DNA of 11,244 nucleotides from Candidatus Hermodarchaeota archaeon (GCA_048885525.1 JBHLLP010000072.1:1-11244), one strand, 5' to 3'. Counted from the stretch's first letter, positions 369 to 11,243 are shown. Numbers and translations: made by a program. The notes: generated from the letters alone by a model not told the origin.

Positions 369-3278
369 TTAGTGGTGATTTCTATTCTTTTTTGTTTTAT
401 TGAGTTGTCGAGTTGAGATTCCTATAACACATCCAGGTACTGCAATACATGCAACAATTAAAGGAATTGCAGCATTAATTTCGCCATCATAGTTTTTAGG
501 TGGTTTTGGAGGTGGAGGTTCAGGTCCTTCTATTGTAAAGCTTGAGTTTCCAATATTAAGAGTTAAATCTCTAACTTGGTCATTAAGAAGAATATCAAAG
601 TAATATTCTCCTGGTTCTGATAAGAAATATTCAAGATAAAATGTACTAGATAAATTAAAGTCTGTACGTGAGAAATCTTTCTGATCATATAGAACTGTAT
701 CTCTATAAATTTTGGTAAATACATTCCCTATAGATAGTGGATATTTGGAATTATTTGCCAAAAGTGAGCCGTTAACCTCAAACATAATTGTTGTAGAAGA
801 ATTGTTTATTTTGAGATTATATTCTAACCCATAAGATGTACCAAACATAATATTGGTTTCTGCTTTTATACGAGCTCCTTCATAGGCTCGAAGAACTCCT
901 TGAATTATTGGAAAATATTCAAATTCCATTGGGATTGGAATATCTTTTACATATGTATTATTATCGATTTTATCAAAAATATATGCACCGGTCTGATTAC
1001 TTTCGAACTTAAAGGTAATGTATGAACCAAAGTCATTTACTATTAAATTATGAAGGGATACTTCCATGTGATTGATTTCTCCTAATTCAATAATATCTGA
1101 ATATTGAGCATTTATTTGAATTGAACTATCCCGAGCCATTTCACAGATCCATAAAAATGCATTTTGATCGATTTTGTTTTTATCCGTATTTAAATAGAAT
1201 TCACTGTATTCTTTACAGAATATAGAATTCACTAAATTTTGAGTAAGTTCAACATTGAAATTTATCCCTAGATTCAAAATCTCAGAAATTTTATAGCAAT
1301 AATACACATTTTTAATATTATTATAATTTAAGGCGGTCATAACATAGTTTCTGATTTTTCCAATATCTTTATTGAATAAATTCAATGCCTTTAAAATATA
1401 AATCATATAATAGGTATTTTGTAAGATAATTTCTACATTTGAAATATATCGTGGAGAAAAATAGAGTATTGTGGAAGTTTCAACGGTATTTCTATCTAGA
1501 TATGTATAGAGAGCATTTACATCAAATCCTAATCCAGTAAAGTTTAATGACAATTGATTTGAAATAATCTCTAAGGATCTTATCGCATAATAAGTATATT
1601 CAAAATACAAGCGTTTACTAATAATTTCAGAAGACCAATAATCGTTATATTTTAATATGGGAGAGAAAGAACCATATATATTATAATAAGACTCATTAAG
1701 GAATTGTGTGGCCACAATATCATTAAGTAGACTCATAATATCAAACTCACCTGCAAAATCGTCTAATTTATAAAGTTTCTCTAAAGAGTTTAGAGCGTGA
1801 TAAGTTGATTCATGGGAATTTAACATTGAAATATCTTCAATATAATTTTTTTGTCCTGTAGTAAAATATTCAATTGGAAACGATCTCATCGCTCCCATTG
1901 AAACACTGGTATCTTGAGTTAATATACTTTGAAAAAATCTTGATATACCAAAATCAGTAAAATCATTATAAGAATATTTGAGCTGTAAATAGGTATTTTG
2001 AATGTCTAAACTAGAAAGTTTATCAAATTTAGCCAAGGATGATACAAATGCATTCATAAATCTACAAGAAGTAAAATCTTCTGAAAGAAGTGCGAATCCT
2101 CCATAAGAAGTATACATTAAAGTGGTGTTTCCTATTTGGTTTATCTCTTCTTGGGAGAATTGAGAAATATTATTACGTAACGCTCGGATAATTTGAAATG
2201 TATCTATTAATTCATGAATCTTATATTTCGTGGATTGATCCCAATTTCCATAAGAATTACGGTTTCCCATAATAAATTCAAAGACTTCATCTTTAGAAAC
2301 AGTGAGATAATTTGTAATTTCCGATAGTTCTAGCCCTAAAGCACTTGCAACTATATTAGTATAATTCATCCCGTCAATTGACATGAGAAAATAATGATAC
2401 TGTGAAGAATACAAATTATCAAGAAATTGATGAAACTCAATATTATTAATGGTATATTCCATTCCTAAAACTTCTAAAGTTTTAATGCTATAGTAAGAGG
2501 ATAATAAGCTTGGCTCAAAAAATGGATTTAGTGTATCAAGAGTTAGATCCTCATCATTTCGAAACCCTCCTTTTATCCCCGGAAAACTTCCAGATATCTG
2601 TAGGTCATTAATAAATTGTATTATTGCATCTTTCTCAATTGAATAACTGCTCCAATCATCCATCAATACTTCTAAAGTTAATACAGCAAAAAATGCATTG
2701 TCAGCAGTAGGAACTTTGAATCCTGCATCCAAATCAGAGTCATATTCTTGTCCTATAAATCCTCCAAGGTATTGACAATCCCAAATAAAATCGATCATCT
2801 CATCCGTATCAATTAGACTTGTACTGTTTAATATGTCTAATGAAAGGACAGCATAGCAATTAACCTCTAATACAGTACTTAAGGGAAAATACGTTAGGGA
2901 AAAGTCTGAATCCAAATATCGATAGGCCAACGTATCCATAAAGCGATTAGTACTGGGATTATAATGAGACATTATATAATCCAATATTTCTGTCTGATTT
3001 ATTTCATGAAGTTTTCCTAGACTTTCAAGAATATAAAGACCATAATATGTAGCTCGTAAGGATGGCTCGTAAATTTGTGGAAAATATCCCAATGTGGTAT
3101 AGTTCTCTATTTTAGTATTAAAAATAGATTTAATGATATCGCTATTACTTAGAGAAGAGAGATTTGGAGATTCTAACTGTGTCTCATAATTATTAAAATG
3201 AGAAAAGGGATGAGCTAAAATACCACTTAAAAGAATTATTACTATACTTCCAACCAATACAGAATATTTAGACTTCAT
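369..3278 (-). CDS. Membrane-anchored cell-surface protein with prenyltransferase/squalene-cyclase-type alpha/alpha repeats (969 aa)
   Basis: N-terminal basic-then-hydrophobic signal segment (MKSKYSVLVGSIVIILLSGILA). Recurring helical motif (PSLRATYYGLYILESLG, PTADNAFFAVLTLEVL, PSLLSSYYSIKTLEVLG, NSHESTYHALNSLEKL, FEYTYYAIRSLEII, LQNTYYMIYILKAL) with Q/R..GGF/GSF/GNW turns. Beta-rich last ~200 aa, PEPPPPKPPK linker, C-terminal TM helix, basic tail TRQLNKTKKNRNHH, many N-x-S/T sequons. Confidence 0.8.
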   Translation of the reverse strand: MKSKYSVLVGSIVIILLSGILAHPFSHFNNYETQLESPNLSSLSNSDIIKSIFNTKIENYTTLGYFPQIYEPSLRATYYGLYILESLGKLHEINQTEILDYIMSHYNPSTNRFMDTLAYRYLDSDFSLTYFPLSTVLEVNCYAVLSLDILNSTSLIDTDEMIDFIWDCQYLGGFIGQEYDSDLDAGFKVPTADNAFFAVLTLEVLMDDWSSYSIEKDAIIQFINDLQISGSFPGIKGGFRNDEDLTLDTLNPFFEPSLLSSYYSIKTLEVLGMEYTINNIEFHQFLDNLYSSQYHYFLMSIDGMNYTNIVASALGLELSEITNYLTVSKDEVFEFIMGNRNSYGNWDQSTKYKIHELIDTFQIIRALRNNISQFSQEEINQIGNTTLMYTSYGGFALLSEDFTSCRFMNAFVSSLAKFDKLSSLDIQNTYLQLKYSYNDFTDFGISRFFQSILTQDTSVSMGAMRSFPIEYFTTGQKNYIEDISMLNSHESTYHALNSLEKLYKLDDFAGEFDIMSLLNDIVATQFLNESYYNIYGSFSPILKYNDYWSSEIISKRLYFEYTYYAIRSLEIISNQLSLNFTGLGFDVNALYTYLDRNTVETSTILYFSPRYISNVEIILQNTYYMIYILKALNLFNKDIGKIRNYVMTALNYNNIKNVYYCYKISEILNLGINFNVELTQNLVNSIFCKEYSEFYLNTDKNKIDQNAFLWICEMARDSSIQINAQYSDIIELGEINHMEVSLHNLIVNDFGSYITFKFESNQTGAYIFDKIDNNTYVKDIPIPMEFEYFPIIQGVLRAYEGARIKAETNIMFGTSYGLEYNLKINNSSTTIMFEVNGSLLANNSKYPLSIGNVFTKIYRDTVLYDQKDFSRTDFNLSSTFYLEYFLSEPGEYYFDILLNDQVRDLTLNIGNSSFTIEGPEPPPPKPPKNYDGEINAAIPLIVACIAVPGCVIGISTRQLNKTKKNRNHH

Positions 3279-3294: not shown

Positions 3295-3430
3295 TTAACA
3301 TTTACTGGGTTACAACTACTTCTTAACGAACGTTTATAAATAAAAAACAGTGATTAAACACAAATTCAGAAGAAGGAATATAAAAAATTAAATAAAGAAA
3401 ATAAAATTTAGTCAGGGTTTAGACTAACTG

Positions 3431-4681
3431 TCAAGTCTTTATTCCGGGAGGATCTTTTGTAGAGTAATAATAAAATATCTCAAAATTTAGTAACTCGTTA
3501 GATTGAATTTCAGGTCGATTTTCAGATTTAACAACTAAAGGAAAATCGTTTATTTTGAGAGTGACAATTACTGGAGTACTCTTTTGTCCCCTCATGGCAA
3601 AATAATAGTAATCAAAATTATCTTTGGCATTGAAAATATTCGTGGCATTTCCAAGGACTATTTGTCTATAATCCTCTTCTTCTTGAATGGCAGTATCAGC
3701 TTCTCGTTTTTCCAATACTCCTATTTTTTCCATAATCTTTACTAAAATATCGGAGGATCTAATTAAGCTGATAAAACCATGTACTTTAAATTTCTCAAAT
3801 ATTTTTTTCTTAACTTGAGCTTGGATTGTACTCATTCTAATTCCTAAACGATTACAAATCGAACTCACACTAACTTTTTCTTTATATGAACATAATATTG
3901 AAATTGAACTTACTAATCCTGCTACTACATTATCCGTTGTATTTTTAATTCCTTGCCATAACCTATATAAAATCTTTTTTGAAAGATAGTAAAAGGGTAT
4001 CCCTAACTCAAAATGCTCAGATATCTCGAGTATTCTTTGGAGAATATACTCTTGTCTATTACGTTCAGCATAATTTGGTAAGAATCTTTGAAGTTGTAAA
4101 TTGAAATCATTAAACTCCTTTTTTGTAATATTAGAATTTTCAATTAACTCATAAGGATTAATAGAAATATTCCTAAGTTTAAGACAGAAATATATCGTGA
4201 TTGAAACCAACTTCTCTACGCTTCTGTATTTAGAACCTGGCCGAATACGAGCTCTTAATAATTTGAATTTATTTAAAACCATTTCTTTTATATCATCATA
4301 TCCTCCAACTAAATCTAAAGAGTTAAAAATTCTTGAGATTTCAATCCGAGCTTTATCTAGTACTGTTCTTTCACTGTTAGTTATTGAATTATACTTATTT
4401 ATTCTTTGTAATTTGATTGAATGAGGCGAGATTACCCTTTCTCGCCTCGTTCCAATCTGAGTTGTGCCAACACCCCTTGCATATTGGATTATATCTTCAT
4501 TATAAGGTTTATCATACTGCAATTTTTTAATTTCGAGAACGATTCCACATTCTCGACACACATAACCCTCTATAGTATCCACAATATCTGCAGAACCACA
4601 GATATCACATTTAAGATGAGAATAACTATGAGGAAGCGTGCTATTCTGAACTTCATTATAAGTTGCCATTGTTTTGATCAC
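3431..4681 (-). CDS. Divergent transcription initiation factor B (TFB/TFIIB) paralogue with C-terminal extension
   Basis: TFIIB-type Zn ribbon CDICGS-x11-CRECGIV. Two cyclin-fold repeats align by eye to TFB (ERTVLDKARIEISRIFNSLDL; RSVEKLVSITIYFCLK...ITKKEF; TDNVVAGLVSSISIL...SVSSICNRLGIRMSTIQ). No EWR B-reader motif. About 120 extra C-terminal residues. Start is GTG 4681 or in-frame ATG 4669. Confidence 0.8.
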   Translation of the reverse strand: MIKTMATYNEVQNSTLPHSYSHLKCDICGSADIVDTIEGYVCRECGIVLEIKKLQYDKPYNEDIIQYARGVGTTQIGTRRERVISPHSIKLQRINKYNSITNSERTVLDKARIEISRIFNSLDLVGGYDDIKEMVLNKFKLLRARIRPGSKYRSVEKLVSITIYFCLKLRNISINPYELIENSNITKKEFNDFNLQLQRFLPNYAERNRQEYILQRILEISEHFELGIPFYYLSKKILYRLWQGIKNTTDNVVAGLVSSISILCSYKEKVSVSSICNRLGIRMSTIQAQVKKKIFEKFKVHGFISLIRSSDILVKIMEKIGVLEKREADTAIQEEEDYRQIVLGNATNIFNAKDNFDYYYFAMRGQKSTPVIVTLKINDFPLVVKSENRPEIQSNELLNFEIFYYYSTKDPPGIKT

Positions 4682-4723
4682 TATTTTTTTATTTTACCTA
4701 AAGGATATAGGGCAGGAGTTTTG

Positions 4724-4739
4724 CTTTTAAACCTTTTCC
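4724..4739 (-). promoter_or_regulatory. BRE + TATA promoter of the TFB-like gene
   Basis: Minus strand reads GGAAAAGG-TTTAAAAG, a purine-rich BRE directly before a TATA box. This predicts a start site near 4700, just upstream of the SD-like element and start codon. Confidence 0.6.
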
Positions 4740-4842
4740 TCAAAAATTGATCTATGAGAAAAACGCGTCTACTCACAAATTTTGACTAGCAGTTTTTGGA
4801 CTATAACAAAAAATGATCTAATTTTTCTAATTTATCGATCAC

Positions 4843-4856
4843 TGACAAAAATGTCA
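4843..4856. promoter_or_regulatory. Operator-like palindrome TGACA-N4-TGTCA
   Basis: TGACA AAAA TGTCA within the divergent intergenic region. Function is inferred only. Confidence 0.3.
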
Positions 4857-5038
4857 ATCAAGGAAAGTAATACCCGAAATTCTTTGTGCAGAAGCTTTTA
4901 CCCCAGAATCTCAAGGGTTCGATCTTATTAGAGACTTCTATTTCTTCAAGGGCATTTTAGCATACAGTAGAACACTGTGTCAATAAGCTGTTAGAATATA
5001 TTTTTCAATATCTATATACTATCTATTTAAGACTAATG

Positions 5039-5071
5039 TTTAAAAGGAAAACTAATTTTTTCCTTTAAATT
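5039..5071 (+). promoter_or_regulatory. TATA box of the protease operon embedded in an inverted repeat
   Basis: TTT(A)AAAGGAAAA-CTAATT-TTTTCCTTTAAA forms 12 bp with one bulge. TTTAAATT at 5064-5071 starts 29 nt before the ATG at 5093, which fits a leaderless or short-leader transcript. Confidence 0.45.
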
Positions 5072-5092
5072 AGTAAAAAAGAAATAGAAATC

Positions 5093-5833
5093 ATGCTTGA
5101 GGAACCAATAGTATTTTTGGTCATTTTAATTCTTTCTTTACTTGCGAAGAATTTATTGTCTTACAAGTCAAAAGAAAAATTAGGACTTATATATCAAATT
5201 TTGCTACGGTTAGGGTATATTGGAGTAATGGTTCATGAGATTAGCCATTATATTATGAGTTTAGCAGTAGGAAAGATTCCAAAACGCATAGAAATAAAAT
5301 GGAGGGATAAAAGGGGAAATAAAAATCCTCATGGATCCGTCAATGTTACACCCCCTAGTTTCTTACAGGCTATTGTAATTTGTTTAGCACCCCTATATAT
5401 AAGCACTTGGCTCATATTTCTTTCCCTTAATATTATGATAGGTCCTGATTTTAATCCATGGTTAAGAATTATAGCTGGATTTTTATTTATTTCATTGTTC
5501 ATTGGTGCTGCGCCCTCGTACGGAGATTTTCTTTATATAATTGATGCTTTTAAAAAGGCCTCCCTCAATTCTTTTTATCAACTATTTCTAATTTTTATTT
5601 CAGGGCTGATTTTGTGGATGATTTTATGGTATACTCATGTAGTATTCATTTTGGATTTATTTTACTATTTAGCTATTGCGGGGATCTATTTAGTATTAAA
5701 ATTTAGTATTTTTAGTATTTTAACCGTGTCAAATTTGATACTTTCAAGAGATTATAAAAAACCAAGTAAAGCGAAAATAGGGCGGTTCACGCGAAAACAT
5801 TATAAACCAAAAAAGCCTCGGGCTAAGTGGTGA
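5093..5833 (+). CDS. Membrane-embedded zinc metalloprotease, M50/M50B (site-2-protease-like) type (246 aa)
   Basis: HEISH (aa 48-52) inside a hydrophobic helix, HGSV strand, LAP motif, and AAPSYGD (D145) at the end of a later TM helix as likely third Zn ligand. About 6 hydrophobic segments and a very basic C-terminal tail. Confidence 0.7.
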   Translation: MLEEPIVFLVILILSLLAKNLLSYKSKEKLGLIYQILLRLGYIGVMVHEISHYIMSLAVGKIPKRIEIKWRDKRGNKNPHGSVNVTPPSFLQAIVICLAPLYISTWLIFLSLNIMIGPDFNPWLRIIAGFLFISLFIGAAPSYGDFLYIIDAFKKASLNSFYQLFLIFISGLILWMILWYTHVVFILDLFYYLAIAGIYLVLKFSIFSILTVSNLILSRDYKKPSKAKIGRFTRKHYKPKKPRAKW

Positions 5834-5842
5834 TATGAAGAA

Positions 5843-6181
5843 ATGAAAGGATTATGTTATATCGTACTAATATTAGGTTTTTTTATTTTTTATCAACAAA
5901 ACCCCTTATATGCTATCATTATTATTGTTCTCTTTATAGGGTTATATCTCTTTTTTAAGTCTCGTTCTTCCCCGGGGAACAGAACTTTTGGATTTTTGAG
6001 TGGTAAACAGTCTCAATATGATTCTAAAATTGATAATTTAATCACATTGATGATGCTTCAGCAATTAATAAAACCAAGTAATCATAACCACCATTCTCTT
6101 AAAAATAAGAAAGAGAAGGAACGAGAAGACACCATTGAAAAAATAAAGAAAGAAGTACTTGAACTGTTAGAAGAAGATTGA
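5843..6181 (+). CDS. Small membrane protein: N-terminal TM hairpin plus charged soluble tail (112 aa)
   Basis: Two hydrophobic stretches in aa ~4-38. Amphipathic helices IDNLITLMMLQQLI and DTIEKIKKEVLELLEED. SD GGTGAT at 5829-5834 overlaps the upstream stop; 1-nt gap to the next gene. Confidence 0.75.
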   Translation: MKGLCYIVLILGFFIFYQQNPLYAIIIIVLFIGLYLFFKSRSSPGNRTFGFLSGKQSQYDSKIDNLITLMMLQQLIKPSNHNHHSLKNKKEKEREDTIEKIKKEVLELLEED

Positions 6182-6182
6182 A

Positions 6183-6881
6183 ATGCTTTTAGAACATGAA
6201 ATTTTTAAAGGAATCACTAAACTCTTTACATATAACAATATTATTTCTGTTTCTGGTGAATCTGGTACCGGTAAGACAACTCTAGCTCTTTCTTTAGTTG
6301 GAAATTGTTTGAAAGATGGAGAACAATGTATATGGATTCAGGCAAGTGAAATTTTTCCAATCAAAAGACTAGAACATATTTTTAAAAAACATCCCAACAA
6401 ATTGGATTATCTTAGAGACAATATCTATATTATCCCTAAAAATCATGTAATCCATACATATCAAGAACAACACAGTTTAATACAAAATTTACTCATTGAA
6501 TCCTCAATTTTACCACCTAATTTGCGTTTCATTGTAGTAGATAACATTTCTCATCATCTACGGTATCGGATTACTCAAAATGAGGGTATAAAGCATATCT
6601 CAAAGATATTAGATGATTTTTTTGAAGAAGAAATAATGCCCTTGATTTTATTTTGTAAAAGAAATTCCATTGTGTTGATATTTATTCACGAGATGACTTT
6701 TGTTCCGAACTTATCATGTACTAAGCCTTTTTTCTATAAATTATTCGATAGATTGAAGACTATAGATTTCATATTGAATAACGGTTCATATGGCAACAAG
6801 AAAAAAATACGTGTTTTACTAGATGGTGGTGAATGGGAGTTTAGTTATACTATTGAACAAAGAGGGATTATTTTTCACTAA
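6183..6881 (+). CDS. RecA/Rad51-family ATPase-core-only paralogue (RadB/aRadC-like, 232 aa)
   Basis: Walker A GESGTGKT, WIQASEIFPIKRL at the YIDTE..F..ERL position, Walker B FIVVD, C-terminal YTIEQRGI matching F.IT..GI. No N-terminal HhH domain, no FxxA motif, no KHR motif of euryarchaeal RadB. Confidence 0.8.
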   Translation: MLLEHEIFKGITKLFTYNNIISVSGESGTGKTTLALSLVGNCLKDGEQCIWIQASEIFPIKRLEHIFKKHPNKLDYLRDNIYIIPKNHVIHTYQEQHSLIQNLLIESSILPPNLRFIVVDNISHHLRYRITQNEGIKHISKILDDFFEEEIMPLILFCKRNSIVLIFIHEMTFVPNLSCTKPFFYKLFDRLKTIDFILNNGSYGNKKKIRVLLDGGEWEFSYTIEQRGIIFH

Positions 6882-6906
6882 CATTATAATAAGTTAAAAT
6901 TACCCA

Positions 6907-6922
6907 TTTTTTTTTTTAAATA
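6907..6922 (+). terminator. T11 terminator overlapping a possible TATA box
   Basis: T11 at 6907-6917, 25 nt after the stop at 6881, runs into TTTAAATA (6915-6922), which begins 29 nt before the in-frame ATG at 6944. Confidence 0.4.
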
Positions 6923-6925
6923 TAC

Positions 6926-7339
6926 TTGAAATATTTAGAGTTCATGGAAATAAATTCTATTGATTCTGGATCTTCTCAGCATCAACTTAATAATATAATA
7001 AAATGTGGTATTTGTCATGCTGAGATAGAGAATTCAGCAACAATTTATCAAGATGGGCTTCATTTTGGAGTAGTATGTGAGAAATGTTATAAAACTAATT
7101 CTCGAGAAGACCTCGAACTTATGGCAAACATGTTCTTGGCTTATGGAGGATACTTTGGAATGATAAAAGATTCCAACTACTCTTTATATAAGACCTTAAA
7201 AAGGGTAGTTTCACAAATAAGCACTAAGGAAAAAGATATCTCTGTTGAAAAATTAAATATTAAATTAATGCATCAAGTTCTCTTACATGGTATTACGCCA
7301 CATCAGTTCATACAGGGATTGAAAATACTCTTGGAATAA
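6926..7339 (+). CDS. C4 zinc-finger protein with helical C-terminal domain, function unknown
   Basis: CGIC-x21-CEKC followed by a helical region (MFLAYGGYFG; HQVLLHGITP). The true start may be ATG 6944 rather than TTG 6926. Confidence 0.7.
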   Translation: MKYLEFMEINSIDSGSSQHQLNNIIKCGICHAEIENSATIYQDGLHFGVVCEKCYKTNSREDLELMANMFLAYGGYFGMIKDSNYSLYKTLKRVVSQISTKEKDISVEKLNIKLMHQVLLHGITPHQFIQGLKILLE

Positions 7340-7500: not shown

Positions 7501-8172
7501 TTGAGTGAAATAAGTCTAGCTATGAATAAAATTGCCAAAGAACTTAAAAAGACAAATCCTTCAAAAAAAAAGATTCTCAATTTTTTATATGACTTACAAC
7601 TTTATGATTTCGAATTTCTGAATAGTATCGGTGAAACATATAAACTTAACCCTCAATTTTTTATGAAAGAACTCTATTCAAATATATGGAAAAAAATGGG
7701 TAAATTACTAGGAAAAAACGGAAGAATTCGAGGAATACGATATATTTTTGAAAATTATTGTTTATATGATGGTGAAAAAATCCAGTATGAATGTGAGGGG
7801 TCAATTCAGAAAAAAAAGCCTTTAAAGAAGCCCTTAATTAAACTCTTAGTAAGTTTAGGAGTAATTTTTATTACTAATCATAGAATTATTGCAGAGGGTA
7901 AACTTACTGTTAACGAACTCTTACAAACAAGGAAAGCAAATATAAGAGATTTTAATGGACAGGAGCGATATAAAAAAAATAGAACCGCAAAAGAAATTTT
8001 AGTTAAAGCCTCAGAATTATGTTTTGGATATGTTTTCCAAGTTAAAAATCTCTCTAATTTAAAGAAGAGTGGACGAAAACTAAGTTATAATCTAGATGAT
8101 GGAAAGACGATTATCACTGCCAAAAAAGAACAAATAGATAAACTCTTTGACATATTAAATCAGTTTCAATAA
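7501..8172 (+). CDS. Lysine-rich hypothetical protein with probable PH-like (GRAM/bPH) domain (223 aa)
   Basis: L-x-x-GE-x-I (LYDGEKI) and G-x-h-h-h-T-N-x-R-h-h (GVIFITNHRII) motifs typical of GRAM/bacterial-PH folds, ending in an amphipathic helix (QIDKLFDILNQF). Start TTG 7501 or ATG 7522. Confidence 0.6.
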   Translation: MSEISLAMNKIAKELKKTNPSKKKILNFLYDLQLYDFEFLNSIGETYKLNPQFFMKELYSNIWKKMGKLLGKNGRIRGIRYIFENYCLYDGEKIQYECEGSIQKKKPLKKPLIKLLVSLGVIFITNHRIIAEGKLTVNELLQTRKANIRDFNGQERYKKNRTAKEILVKASELCFGYVFQVKNLSNLKKSGRKLSYNLDDGKTIITAKKEQIDKLFDILNQFQ

Positions 8173-8314
8173 TTTATATGAAAAGATTCAGATTTAAACT
8201 AAGATAAACATATATATCTATTTTTGTTATATAGATGTTAATGACACCAAATTCAATAATTAATATGAAAAAGATGTGATAAAAATAAAGATTGAAATAA
8301 TTTTCTTAGCCAGA

Positions 8315-8494
8315 ATGGCTCAGCAATTAATCCACCACAATTCAAGTGAGACAAAGATAACAAAAATAGAAAAAAAGAATTTCTTCCAGGAAGCGTTGCA
8401 ATATATTGAACAGTATATAGATAAGACTGGATTTAAAATATTCAGTATAGATTCCGAACAGGGAGGAATCTCATATTTTCTAATAAAAGAGTAA
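8315..8494 (+). CDS. Small hypothetical protein (59 aa from ATG 8315), weakly DUF4177-like beta-alpha-beta-beta pattern
   Basis: MAQQLIHH...FQEALQYIEQYIDKTGFKIFSIDSEQGGISYFLIKE*. Protein-like composition, no overlap with other genes, T-rich tract downstream. The ORF track extends it to GTG 8276. Confidence 0.5.
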   Translation: MAQQLIHHNSSETKITKIEKKNFFQEALQYIEQYIDKTGFKIFSIDSEQGGISYFLIKE

Positions 8495-8520: not shown

Positions 8521-8570
8521 CTTTCTTATTAAATTTTTTTTCTTCTTTATTTTTTCATTTATTTTCCTTT
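8521..8570 (+). terminator. T-rich terminator region
   Basis: Multiple T runs (including T9 at 8534-8542) downstream of the stop at 8494. Confidence 0.4.
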
Positions 8571-8704
8571 AAATAATCTTGTACTACAAATATTTATCGA
8601 GAAAAGGAGGAAATAAAAAGATCTTAGTAATGGGATTTTTTCTCTTTGGTGTAAATTTAAATTTTTATTTCTTCTTTTTCTTTTCTTTTTTTTCTTTAAA
8701 TGAT

Positions 8705-8790
8705 TTTTCTTTTGCATTTAGGACATTAAGGAGAAGATGAATTCTAACCCTAAACCTTGTCTCTAAATTTTTTTTTGCAATTAGGACATT
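8705..8790 (-). repeat. Imperfect direct repeat (21/23 nt, 63-nt period) encoding CPxC-KxK
   Basis: 8705-8727 versus 8768-8790; core TTTTGCA(T/A)TTAGGACATT. One copy lies inside the 103-aa gene and the other downstream of its stop, in the same frame. Confidence 0.7.
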
Positions 8791-9061: not shown

Positions 9062-9208
9062 ATTTTCATCCTCTAAATCGTTTTATAATTGAAATATAAA
9101 ATAGCTATAATTTCTTTTATTTTTGAATTTTCTCTTTTTTTCTTTATATAAGCTTACTTGATTTACATTTTAACAAAATCATTTAAAGGGAGTTGATATA
9201 CAAAAAGG

Positions 9209-10450
9209 ATGGCTGATTTAGATCAAGTAAAGGGTATTAATTCACGCCAAATAAAGTTACTACAAGAGAATGGAATAAGTACAGCGGAAGCTTTAGCTAT
9301 GAGTCCTCATTCTACAGTAGCAACAATTGACGGGTTAGGTGAAAAAACAGCAAAAAAGCTTATCTGGAACGCGAGGAATGCATTAGGAATGACTGATTTT
9401 ACTCCTGCGGCCAAAATTGATGATAATGTAGAGTATTTTACAACTGGTTCTGCCGAATTAAATCGTATTTTAGGAGGAGGATTTCAAACTGGGAAACTAA
9501 CAGAAGTATATGGGCCATTTAAGTCTGGAAAAACAGCATTGGCTCACACTTTATCAGTTACAGTTCAATTACCTCCGAAGAAGGGTGGAATTGATAGTGC
9601 AGCTGCTTATGTTGATACCGAAAATACATTTTCAAAAGAAAAGATTAAACGGATTGCAAAACGATTTGATTTAAATCCAAAAGATGTGCTCTCAAGAATT
9701 TTTCATGCAAGGATTTATTCTTCAGATCATCAAGCTCAGATGATTCAAAAAGCTGAGACCCTCTGTAAGACTCGTGGAGTCCGTTTGATAATTATAGACA
9801 GTCTAATGGCACTACTTCGAGCAGAATACATCGGTATTGGTAAACTAGCTCCAAGACAAGCAGTTCTTAATAATATGATTCATGCATTATCACGAGTGGC
9901 AGAAACTTACAATTGTGCTGTCTTGCTTACAAATCAAGTTGCCACCAAAATGATGGGGATGTTTTCAGCTGATGATGCTATTGGTGGTAATATTGTTGCG
10001 CATGGGTGTCATTTTAGGGTCATGTTTAAAACAAAGGGTTTCTCATCAAACAACTCATTAAAGCGTAGAGCTGTAATCGTGGATGCTCCTGACTTACCCC
10101 CTGAAGAATGCGAATTTTTTATTACTGGTGCGGGGGTAGCCGATACAGATAAAGTAGACCTTCCCGAATCACCTGGATTGGATTTTGAAATCGAAACTTT
10201 ATATGAAGAGGATGAAGATAACCCAGAAGTTAGCGATGGTTCAGATCAACAATCAATTGAAGATTTACCTTTAATTAAAGTGAAAGGTATTGGCAAAGGA
10301 ACTGTAGAGAGTTTGAATTCTCAAGGAATAAAAACTATATCGGATTTATTAGCAGCAGATCCCGAAGAGCTTTCTGCTAGTATCTCGGGAGCCTCGATAA
10401 AGACGGTGAGCGATTGGCAGAATAATGCGAAAGCATTAATGGATTCTTAA
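9209..10450 (+). CDS. radA: RadA/Rad51-family recombinase (paralogue) with acidic linker and extra C-terminal HhH domain (413 aa)
   Basis: N-terminal (HhH)2 domain, FxxA polymerisation motif (FTPA), TTGS..L..ILGGG, Walker A GPFKSGKT, YVDTENTF, Walker B LIIIDS, RAEY, TNQV, IGGNIVAH, DAPDLP..E..F.IT..GV.D. About 100 extra residues follow. Confidence 0.92.
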   Translation: MADLDQVKGINSRQIKLLQENGISTAEALAMSPHSTVATIDGLGEKTAKKLIWNARNALGMTDFTPAAKIDDNVEYFTTGSAELNRILGGGFQTGKLTEVYGPFKSGKTALAHTLSVTVQLPPKKGGIDSAAAYVDTENTFSKEKIKRIAKRFDLNPKDVLSRIFHARIYSSDHQAQMIQKAETLCKTRGVRLIIIDSLMALLRAEYIGIGKLAPRQAVLNNMIHALSRVAETYNCAVLLTNQVATKMMGMFSADDAIGGNIVAHGCHFRVMFKTKGFSSNNSLKRRAVIVDAPDLPPEECEFFITGAGVADTDKVDLPESPGLDFEIETLYEEDEDNPEVSDGSDQQSIEDLPLIKVKGIGKGTVESLNSQGIKTISDLLAADPEELSASISGASIKTVSDWQNNAKALMDS

Positions 10451-10451
10451 A

Positions 10452-11243
10452 TTATTTTTTTTTCAATTCTTCTTTTGAAATGTTCTCGGAAGTTTTGATA
10501 TCAATCTTGGGTTCATCTTTTTTATATTTCTTTGACGGTTTTGAAGGATCGATTGGAGAATCACATACCCAACAAACATTATTTAAATTACTTAGAGCAG
10601 TTGCACATTTAGTGCAGTATAATGCATTACAGGATGAACAAATAAAATTAAATCCTTCTACTTTTCCTTTACAAACCAGACAAATAATTTTTTCTCTAAA
10701 AAAAGTTACCTCTGCTTCAGAAATCTGCAAAGGTCTTAAACGCGATAATGTATCTATTAATGAAATTTGTGAGGTTTTAGAAGTTTGATTTTTAATCGAA
10801 ATAAAATCTCCAGTTTGAACTTGTTTTTCCCTTAGAGCAAAATAAAAAAACCACGAACTACTCTGATATCCTATTCTGACTAAAAATAAAGTAATACCTG
10901 GATCAGTTAATGCATCTAATGTTCCAGTGATTACAAATATAATCCAACCAACTGATAATAGAGAGAACCTTTTTCTTATTTCTCCAGCAGCTTGTTTAGC
11001 TTTAATAGCAAATCCAAATCCCATAAATACCAAAGCACTAACTAGGAAGAAAGCAATAAGTATAAATGTAGGGTGAGTTCTATTAAAATTTAGATCAATT
11101 ATATCAGCACCAGGTTGATCTGGTAGTGTTAATGTAAATGATTTGTTCAAATCAAGTATCAAGAAAAACTCAAAAATAATTCCTAGAATTAAATACGTCC
11201 CTACAATTCCTATAATCGTTCTCTTTTTTTCGGAAATTAGAAG
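10452..11243 (-). CDS. 3' part of a multi-pass membrane protein with C-terminal C4C4 RING-like zinc finger (5' end outside window)
   Basis: The frame stays open from the TTG at 11162 to the window edge (LLISEKKRTIIGIVGTYLILGIIFEFF-LILD...), so the gene is truncated. At least four TM helices, then CLVC-x10-CSSC-x4-CTKC-x10-CWVC and a Lys-rich tail. Confidence 0.8.
   Translation of the reverse strand, partial: LLISEKKRTIIGIVGTYLILGIIFEFFLILDLNKSFTLTLPDQPGADIIDLNFNRTHPTFILIAFFLVSALVFMGFGFAIKAKQAAGEIRKRFSLLSVGWIIFVITGTLDALTDPGITLFLVRIGYQSSSWFFYFALREKQVQTGDFISIKNQTSKTSQISLIDTLSRLRPLQISEAEVTFFREKIICLVCKGKVEGFNFICSSCNALYCTKCATALSNLNNVCWVCDSPIDPSKPSKKYKKDEPKIDIKTSENISKEELKKK

Follow-up and report, generated by a model that had tools for sequence, protein, structure and literature searches.

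A diverged TFB paralogue and a candidate promoter code at the centre of a chromosomal island conserved in one Lokiarchaeial family

The 11,244-bp stretch of archaeal DNA analyzed here (JBHLLP010000072.1), referred to as the window, is the entire contig C72 of a 3.58-Mb Lokiarchaeial (Promethearchaeia) assembly, hereafter G000. It carries the gene of a diverged paralogue of transcription factor B (TFB), g2, which faces an operon encoding a membrane protease resembling the site-2 proteases (S2Ps), g3, a small protein with two transmembrane (TM) segments, g4, and a RecA-fold ATPase, g5. A zinc-finger gene (g6) and a RadA paralogue (g10) lie further along the same strand as the operon, and the gene of a large surface protein (g1) lies downstream of g2 on the g2 strand (Table 1). 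A preliminary description of positions 3431-7339 had listed the open reading frames (ORFs), motifs and gaps from g2 to g6, all of which were reproduced: the divergent g2-g3 spacer measures 411 bp, and the gaps are 9 nt between g3 and g4, 1 nt between g4 and g5 and 44 nt between g5 and g6. The RadA paralogue, said to lie about 1.9 kb further on, starts 1869 nt beyond 7339. The genes of that interval are real, but the interval misses most of the system, g1 included.

Table 1. Genes and promoter elements of the window, with positions counted from its first nucleotide.
Feature	Position	Strand	Remark
g1, 969-aa surface protein	369..3278	-	Pfam PF00432; 24 loci beside g2
Degenerate island element TTTTTTATTTATAA, 2 mismatches, 55 nt before g1 ATG	3334..3347	-	
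g2, diverged TFB paralogue, 416 aa	3431..4681	-	GTG start conserved; first ATG 4669
g2's own promoter GGAAAAGG-TTTAAAAG, ~42 nt before GTG	4724..4739	-	Alignment of 21 intergenic regions
Island element TTTTTCCTTTAAAT, ends 22 nt before g3 ATG	5057..5070	+	Same place in 31/48 loci
g3, S2P-like putative intramembrane zinc metalloprotease, 246 aa, HEISH 48-52, PSYGD 141-145	5093..5833	+	
g4, 112-aa 2-TM protein	5843..6181	+	g5-adjacent in 31/31 loci
g5, 232-aa single-domain RecA-fold ATPase (RadB/Rad57-like)	6183..6881	+	
Island element TTTTTTTTTTAAAT, 1 mismatch, ends 22 nt before g6 ATG 6944	6908..6921	+	
g6, C4 Zn-finger protein	6926..7339	+	Likely start 6944
g7 (223 aa) and g8 (72 aa), variable insert, few relatives have them	7501..8494	+	
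Island element TTTTTTCTTTATAT, 59 nt before g10 ATG	9136..9149	+	Top-scoring site genome-wide
g10, RadA paralogue with a second C-terminal HhH domain	9209..10450	+	

The product of g2 had been proposed to be an alternative TFB, a view borne out by its profile match to canonical TFBs and by the fold of its predicted structure. In Pfam and NCBIfam it belongs to no family beyond a weak zinc ribbon (PF08271, E 0.0015, below the cut-off), it does not match Pfam PF00382, and a search of the PDB with the single sequence found nothing; the g2 family profile reaches TFIIB there marginally (E 0.16). The four cysteines of a C4 ribbon (C25, C28, C42 and C45) are invariant among the homologues, and a profile of 26 g2 orthologues finds the canonical TFBs of G000 with E of 1e-11 to 9e-8 over the ribbon and both cyclin repeats. 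Alignment of the g2 family with these canonical TFBs by hhalign covers 251 columns, including the two-cyclin core, at a probability of 99.1% and E of 6e-19. Structures were predicted with AlphaFold for g2 and g3. Significant PDB matches of the g2 model (predicted local distance difference test, pLDDT, 72.5) are exclusively TFIIB, TFB and Brf chains, and Foldseek superposes it on the Pyrococcus TFB core (1d3u_B) with a TM-score of 0.79 and a root mean square deviation of 3.1. When aligned with canonical TFBs, g2 has lost about 19 residues of the B-linker at the LPDMGLSTIID segment, and the helix that recognizes the B recognition element (BRE), canonically TEVTLRSRYKE, reads RMSTIQAQVKK and is conserved inside the g2 family; an extra C-terminal beta-rich domain terminates in K(G/D)PP. 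The canonical B-reader/B-linker and recognition helix are not found in g2, and because of the shortened linker and changed helix we consider it a diverged paralogue and not a standard TFB. Besides g2, G000 carries ten canonical two-cyclin TFB genes, on contigs C32, C28, C1 (two), C3, C4, C55, C2, C25 and C7. This TFB repertoire is unusually large.

Alignment of 21 g2-g3 intergenic regions revealed only two conserved blocks. The one beside g2 reads GGAAAAGG-TTTAAAA. The other, 22 nt before the ATG of g3, is the 14-nt element TTTTTYCTTTAWAT, in which a T5-Y-C tract stands immediately before TTTAWAT and occupies the BRE position. The window contains seven sites of this element with at most one mismatch, all on the plus strand, against 0.54 expected, and none of 200 shuffles reached seven; exact or near-exact copies lie before g3 (5057), g6 (6908) and g10 (9136). 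When its position was surveyed across 58 loci, the element was found at a fixed distance before g3 in 31 of 48 cases, g6 in 17 of 17, g10 in 19 of 22 and g1 in 20 of 24, the g1 copies having at most one mismatch and lying 34-58 nt upstream. It also precedes g4 where this gene is split from g3 (three loci) and the gene of a membrane protein with a helix-hairpin-helix (HhH) domain (3/3). Before g2-type genes it was found only once in 43. A weight matrix yields 32 sites in G000 versus 11 in the reversed sequence, and those followed by an ORF starting 10-85 nt downstream number 14 versus 1; nine of the 14 lie on contigs C46, C72 and C83, where the exact motif is 25-fold enriched. The g3 transcript is probably leaderless.

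The possibility that the element is a general promoter consensus was ruled out, TTTYC preceding the TATA box in 2 of 351 TATA-bearing upstream regions of long ORFs. Two more copies stand between g8 and the minus-strand g9 (8561-8574 and 8688-8701, plus strand); neither is followed by a convincing ORF, the only frame there being a hydrophobic one of 36 aa (8630-8740), and their transcript could encode a small protein or be a non-coding RNA. On the other side of the divergent spacer, about 100 nt upstream of g2 (4682-4800) are conserved across the genus beyond the TATA box, including a block around CTACTC. This stretch may control g2 by acting as an operator or as a 5' leader element.

Our analysis revealed that the window occupies the centre of a chromosomal island that measures about 38-45 kb and is conserved in one Lokiarchaeia (Promethearchaeia) family. 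The G000 assembly distributes this island over three contigs, C46, C72 (the window) and C83. In genome G017 it lies on a single contig, which has 21 motif copies at 13.8-51 kb (46 kb of island) and no exact copy in the other ~109 kb. This region is collinear with G016, with G005 and with C46 + C72 + C83 of G000, and given the agreement of the four genomes the window is the middle of one island cut by the assembly. About 16 transcription units of the island carry the element, among them g1, g3-g4-g5, g6 and g10. Further DNA-related genes encode an HhH-NYN protein, a Hel308-like helicase, a DEAD/ResIII helicase, an XPG/FEN1-like nuclease and an OB-fold RPA-like protein; the island also encodes a PP-loop-like protein, a 1290-aa membrane protein together with two smaller TM proteins, and an Arf-like GTPase. 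Since all its DNA-metabolism genes have separate paralogues in other parts of the genome, the island represents a second set. Many of its ORFs belong to no recognizable family. A search of PHROGs with ten unassigned island ORFs gave one weak QueC-like match and nothing else, and no integrase, capsid, terminase or conjugation gene was recognized in the island, nor any viral, conjugative or defence hallmark. At its right end, the island has a motif-preceded pair of genes, for a 197-aa protein without family assignment and then the Arf-like small GTPase (L102:6568-7841 in G017, equal to G000:C83:1-887).

The neighbourhood reported in the preliminary description, extended to g1 <- g2 <> g3-g4-g5-(g6)-g10, is kept in eight genera of one Lokiarchaeial family, and because of this conservation the arrangement is far beyond chance. 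Nearly all members of the genus show it, g6 and g10 being variably present, at protein identities of 33-75%, and the same order was found in seven more genera of the family. The search of 154 genomes of the order gave 150 protease matches, 87 of which lie within 8 kb of a g2-type gene. In 76 of these 87 cases the two genes are divergent, mostly with 380-680 bp between them, and g1 adjoins g2 in 24 loci. Even inside the genus, g7-g9 and g11 are variable. A search of 192 genomes from other Asgard families at E <= 1e-30 yielded no gene of the g2 type. Furthermore, five same-genus genomes that have neither g2 nor g3 are also devoid of g5 and of the g10-type RadA, and the density of the island motif in them is about half (4.9 vs 8.9 per Mb). 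Conserved synteny, this joint absence and the common promoter element together uphold the earlier claim that the genes form one functional unit.

A number of loci depart from the common order. The block of G024 is divided into two parts, both of which have a g2 copy of their own (L019, L071). In G099 the order is g1 <- g2 <> g4-g5-g10: the protease is cleanly missing, the promoter now stands before g4, and no protease homologue was found by a search of that genome. In G006 g1-g3 were seen, and a 100-N gap follows directly after g3. One genus has operons of a short TFB-like gene, then a protease paralogue, then a HerA-like ATPase (L062-L064, L076). In a second type of module, the protease paralogue is directly followed by a 650-aa HerA-like (DUF87) ATPase (L040, L044, L037, L062-L064, L072-L078), a succession found in 11 loci and often preceded by a short TFB-like gene or by a 1290-aa membrane protein. 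G104 has eight protease matches, one of them a fragment, and the HerA-like module was seen at five. No solved relative of the HerA-like ATPase was found by sequence search.

In the sister family, that of the cultured Prometheoarchaeum, a protease homologue is DSAG12_02159, and a closed 4.3-Mb genome (L046) carries the same neighbourhood as the Prometheoarchaeum-family version. Here a TFB-like gene is followed by that of a 1070-aa toroid protein, and the pair faces an operon for an 88-aa protein, a 410-aa TM protein, the protease and a 253-aa protein. The 253-aa protein gives a weak ERCC4-nuclease match (E 0.004; L046 = G038:C1:1747000-1763700, L028, L048), and the promoters near the TFB-like gene show a variant element, a T tract followed by G/C and then TATA. 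More distant Asgard families have no g2; their protease homologue is in an operon with a giant g1-like protein of 1340-1645 aa, once with a RadA-like gene in between.

Regarding g3, the suggestion that it encodes an S2P-like membrane protease was confirmed by its invariant HExxH and PSxxD motifs and by structural matches to S2Ps. In 18-43 homologues, residues H48, E49, H52, P141, S142 and D145 show no or almost no variation. The first three lie within a predicted helix (32-58), placing HExxH in a TM helix, and P141, S142 and D145 are at the start of helix 143-155. The five best PDB chains for the AlphaFold model (pLDDT 91) are all S2Ps, with middling Z values of 7.3-8.4 (RseP 8.4, MjS2P 7.8, SpoIVFB 7.5) for 122-125 residues aligned over residues 22-156. 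Foldseek assigns S2Ps a probability of 0.98-0.99, but with a weak E of about 0.02 (0.017). In Pfam and NCBIfam g3 has no match at E <= 0.1 and so falls outside Pfam M50 by sequence; its distant sequence relatives carry PF13398 (Peptidase_M50B) or PF11667 (DUF3267), and its family profile reaches RseP in the PDB marginally (E 0.85). In common with RseP (7w6x), MjS2P (3b4r) and SpoIVFB (8vjl), the modelled protein shows the HExxH motif inside a TM helix, a membrane-reentrant beta hairpin and, over residues 22-156, the three-helix core (Z 7.5-8.4); an Asp also occurs in a TM helix further along. Its candidate motif for the third zinc ligand, PSxxD, differs from the NxxPxxxLDG of S2Ps, and unlike them it has no PDZ or CBS domain, a length of only 246 aa and no match to Pfam M50. 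Here g3 is designated S2P-like and is not assigned to Pfam M50. No relative was found in IMG/VR with the search pattern used, and a PADLOC scan of the five proteins of the preliminary description returned no defence system, only generic P-loop matches.

In the g4 protein, an invariant QQNP connects two short hydrophobic helices; behind them come a conserved tail and, at the C-terminus, an acidic helix. Its gene is next to g5 in 31 of 31 loci, and the two also sit together in the protease-free L080 and L107. When scanned against Pfam, NCBIfam and PADLOC, g3, g4 and g6 could be placed in no family, and g5 gave only generic P-loop matches. In g5, which has a RecA fold, GESGTGKT (Walker A), E56 and IVVDNISHH (Walker B) are conserved, and the best solved relative is Rad57 (E 7.7e-8). 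Like the RadB of Euryarchaeota and Rad57, it is a single RecA-fold domain with Walker A and B kept, no N-terminal HhH and linkage to a RadA-type gene. Unlike RadB, it is coupled to the gene of a 2-TM protein in an operon with a membrane protease, and it scores far under the cut-off of the RadB family TIGR02237 (38.3 bits, cut-off 172.4), to which it cannot be assigned. In one locus g5 is split over two adjacent frames (L013:8703-9353), and the RadA paralogue is likewise split in another (L034:357-1647); this could reflect a frameshift, a stop or a small intron.

The g6 protein has a CxxC...CxxC pattern and a conserved ANxFxAYGGYFG motif, and its gene likely starts at ATG 6944 rather than TTG 6926. 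Members of its family are known only from Promethearchaeota, and the ESM Atlas holds Promethearchaeota clusters only. Furthermore, g1 matches PF00432 (prenyltransferase-type alpha/alpha-toroid repeats; Pfam E 4.7e-14) and is composed of an N-terminal signal or anchor, toroid repeats, a Pro-rich linker and a C-terminal TM segment. With an N-terminal HhH domain and the ATPase core, g10 scores 325 bits against the RadA family NF003301 (cut-off 259). It ranks third of three RadA-like genes in G000 and is therefore a paralogue; two RadA clades of Asgard archaea have already been described in the literature. As for the canonical RadA genes of several relatives, seven of ten matches contain exactly one in-frame stop within an otherwise intact match, examples being G020:C152, G008:C87, G023:C1:943467, G004:C30 and G013:C56; mini-introns of the tRNA type may be the cause. 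Finally, the gene at 10452-11243 (minus strand) codes for a multi-pass membrane protein with a C4C4 RING-like finger at its end; the family has a dozen or more members in G000, at this and at least 11 other places.

Taken together, we believe, with a probability of roughly 55%, that g2 is the dedicated initiation factor of the island, the archaeal counterpart of an alternative-sigma regulon. The reasons are that a TFB with a new recognition helix occurs with a new element in the BRE position of about 16 promoters, that this element is absent from the promoter of g2, and that the genes are jointly present or absent. Having kept the zinc ribbon and the cyclin core and changed the helix, g2 would act as a promoter-selective initiation factor and, together with the TATA-binding protein (TBP), would recognize the T5-Y-C tract before TTTAWAT. 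Since the promoter of g2 is ordinary-looking and unlike the island element, the making of g2 would be the switch. The output at the envelope would comprise the giant toroid surface protein, the S2P-like protease, g4 and other membrane proteins. The recombination output would include the two-HhH RadA paralogue, the RadB-like ATPase with its presumed zinc-finger partner and the Hel308-like and DEAD helicases, as well as the FEN1-like nuclease, the RPA-like OB-fold protein and the HhH-NYN protein. The protease operon carries the regulon promoter, and the protease would therefore be an output of the regulon. Most likely, g4 would anchor the ATPase g5 at the membrane, and the protease would process a membrane or surface protein of the island (g1 or g4) and not the TFB; the cleanly missing protease of G099, the tie between g4 and g5 in 31/31 loci and the promoter on the protease operon all point this way. 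The role suggested by the gene content is an inducible DNA exchange, repair or recombination programme linked to the envelope. The earlier guess at a DNA damage, uptake or recombination function fits the extra RadA, RadB-like, Hel308-like, FEN1-like and RPA-like paralogues of the island.

Several considerations weigh against assigning the element to g2. It could be read by one of the ten canonical TFBs, by a TBP variant or by another factor, and g2, with its partial B-linker, might not open promoters alone. The exact motif exceeds the reversed control even in G013 (24 vs 7) and G023 (16 vs 7), which have no g2. The weight matrix was trained on motif-selected sites, which makes the core scores partly circular. 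In addition, the loci are kin, so that many seemingly independent ones have common ancestry, and the joint absence of adjacent genes can be explained by one deletion or a missing contig. The biological role, moreover, is deduced from domain content only.

Among the other explanations, the one that fares best, unlikely as we find it, is that the island is a domesticated or integrated mobile element of viral or plasmid origin, with its own TFB for element-specific promoters. TFB homologues are indeed encoded by Asgard viruses and mobile elements (bioRxiv 10.1101/2021.07.29.453957; PMC13700489). One promoter on all units and private replication and recombination genes are typical of such elements, the island is missing from about one fifth of the genus genomes searched, and the short modules of TFB-like, protease and HerA-like genes are multi-copy, as in G104. 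However, none of the hallmark genes of such elements was recognized, PADLOC returned no system and IMG/VR no protease relative with the pattern used. Moreover, the same gene order extends over eight genera with a divergence typical of vertical descent: the RadA paralogue shows 77-94% identity and the protease 33-59%, and the gene at the left end of the compared region (374 aa, G000 C46:1685-2788) is 83-85% identical in four genomes.

Somewhat less likely still is the circuit put forward in the preliminary description, for which gene order alone spoke: the 112-aa g4 would tether the TFB paralogue or the ATPase at the membrane until the S2P-like protease cuts it and thereby frees or activates the regulator. 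RseP acts in this way on RseA/sigma-E and SpoIVFB on pro-sigma-K, and g3 has the corresponding fold and catalytic motifs. TFB-like and protease genes are adjacent in three arrangements, including the paralogous modules. S2P cleavage of SREBP needs Asn-Pro, of which the helix-breaking QQNP in the hydrophobic segment of g4 is reminiscent, and the small 2-TM partner likewise recalls BofA, the inhibitor of SpoIVFB. On the other hand, the regulon promoter on the protease operon makes the protease a target, and G099 retains g1, g2, g4, g5 and g10 without any protease homologue found in the genome searched, which leans against cleavage of a regulator being obligatory. The g4 gene is bound to g5 and not to g3 or g2, and it persists without protease in L080 and L107. 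Furthermore, g2 has neither a TM segment nor a recognizable pro-sequence, many TFB-like paralogues occur without protease (63/150), and outside the g1-g10 order, in other Asgard families, the partner of the protease is a giant surface protein, with no TFB.

It seems more doubtful again that g3-g4-g5 constitute an ATP-dependent membrane protease complex maturing or shedding g1, with the TFB-like gene and the RadA paralogue as mere neighbours. Protease homologues elsewhere in Asgard archaea are in operons with giant g1-like proteins, sometimes with a RadA-like ATPase between (L082-L089), and protease paralogues are directly followed by a HerA-like P-loop ATPase in the 11 loci mentioned above. 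In addition, g1 has a C-terminal TM anchor, and the 9-nt and 1-nt gaps suggest coupled translation. This proposal leaves unexplained the common promoter on g6, g10 and the helicase and nuclease genes, as well as the g2 copy in each half of the G024 block, and it is compatible with a dedicated factor as a sub-function of the island rather than a true alternative. Plain inheritance of gene order without functional coupling we consider very improbable: all loci come from one archaeal order and their common ancestry inflates the counts, but the flanks (g7-g9, g11) vary within the genus when the block and the 14-nt element stay fixed in diverged intergenic DNA, and the pairing outlasts rearrangement and duplication.

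With g2 as the dedicated factor, the island can be compared with known systems. Haloarchaea have multiple TFBs, and in Sulfolobales TFB3 acts in the UV response and couples DNA damage to envelope machinery and DNA exchange. Like the Sulfolobales and haloarchaeal paralogues, g2 is an additional TFB with a defined, here deduced, gene set. It differs from them in combining both cyclin folds with a novel recognition helix, a shorter B-linker and an extra domain at its C-terminus. Unlike known TFB-paralogue regulons, the units of the island are clustered physically around the g2 gene. In the TFB2 division regulon of Sulfolobales the BRE looked similar to that of TFB1 and spacing alone differed, and tfb2 binds its own promoter (bioRxiv 10.64898/2026.09.06.749720). 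Unlike TFB2, the island promoters have a distinct pyrimidine tract in the BRE position, and g2 lacks the island motif at its own promoter. Bacterial alternative sigma factors (ComX/SigH and the extracytoplasmic function, ECF, sigmas) similarly present a dedicated factor with a private motif, envelope and DNA-processing or recombination genes being mixed. However, g2 has a TFIIB fold and belongs to an unrelated family, an anti-factor is unsupported here, and ECF sigmas usually autoregulate, which g2 seemingly does not. The Ced/Ups systems for DNA exchange in Sulfolobales combine a polytopic membrane protein, small 2-TM proteins and an ASCE ATPase with a TFB-paralogue-dependent response. The island also has a polytopic membrane protein, a small 2-TM protein and an ASCE ATPase (HerA-like in the paralogous modules). 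The likeness noted is one of composition, no relation in sequence having been tested or found; unlike Ced/Ups the island includes a protease active site in g3, and no pilus genes were seen in it.

No description of the g2 factor, the island or its promoter element came up in a literature search. In archaea, promoter-selective TFB paralogues take the place of alternative sigma factors; those with a defined promoter code or regulon are few, and none was found described for Asgard archaea. For the island, sequence alone points to a candidate for the factor, to a 14-nt candidate promoter code and to a compact regulon comprising about 16 units, and a related version is present in the family of the cultured Prometheoarchaeum syntrophicum. 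The presence of duplicated RadA, Hel308, FEN1 and RPA beside envelope proteins and an S2P-like protease bears on the origin of specialized recombination programmes in the lineage closest to eukaryotes. More tentatively, and with considerably less likelihood than a dedicated factor as such, the complete second recombination toolkit, with g5 as a RadB-like mediator, may together with the surface and membrane proteins be an inducible programme of cell contact, DNA exchange and specialized recombination, under its own TFB and a private BRE-like code. If so, the envelope would be the site at which the protease and the membrane-tethered ATPase of RecA fold act on the surface protein or on incoming DNA, and the island would be a prokaryotic parallel to the meiosis-specific paralogues of eukaryotes (DMC1, HFM1, MEIOB) and to competence regulons.

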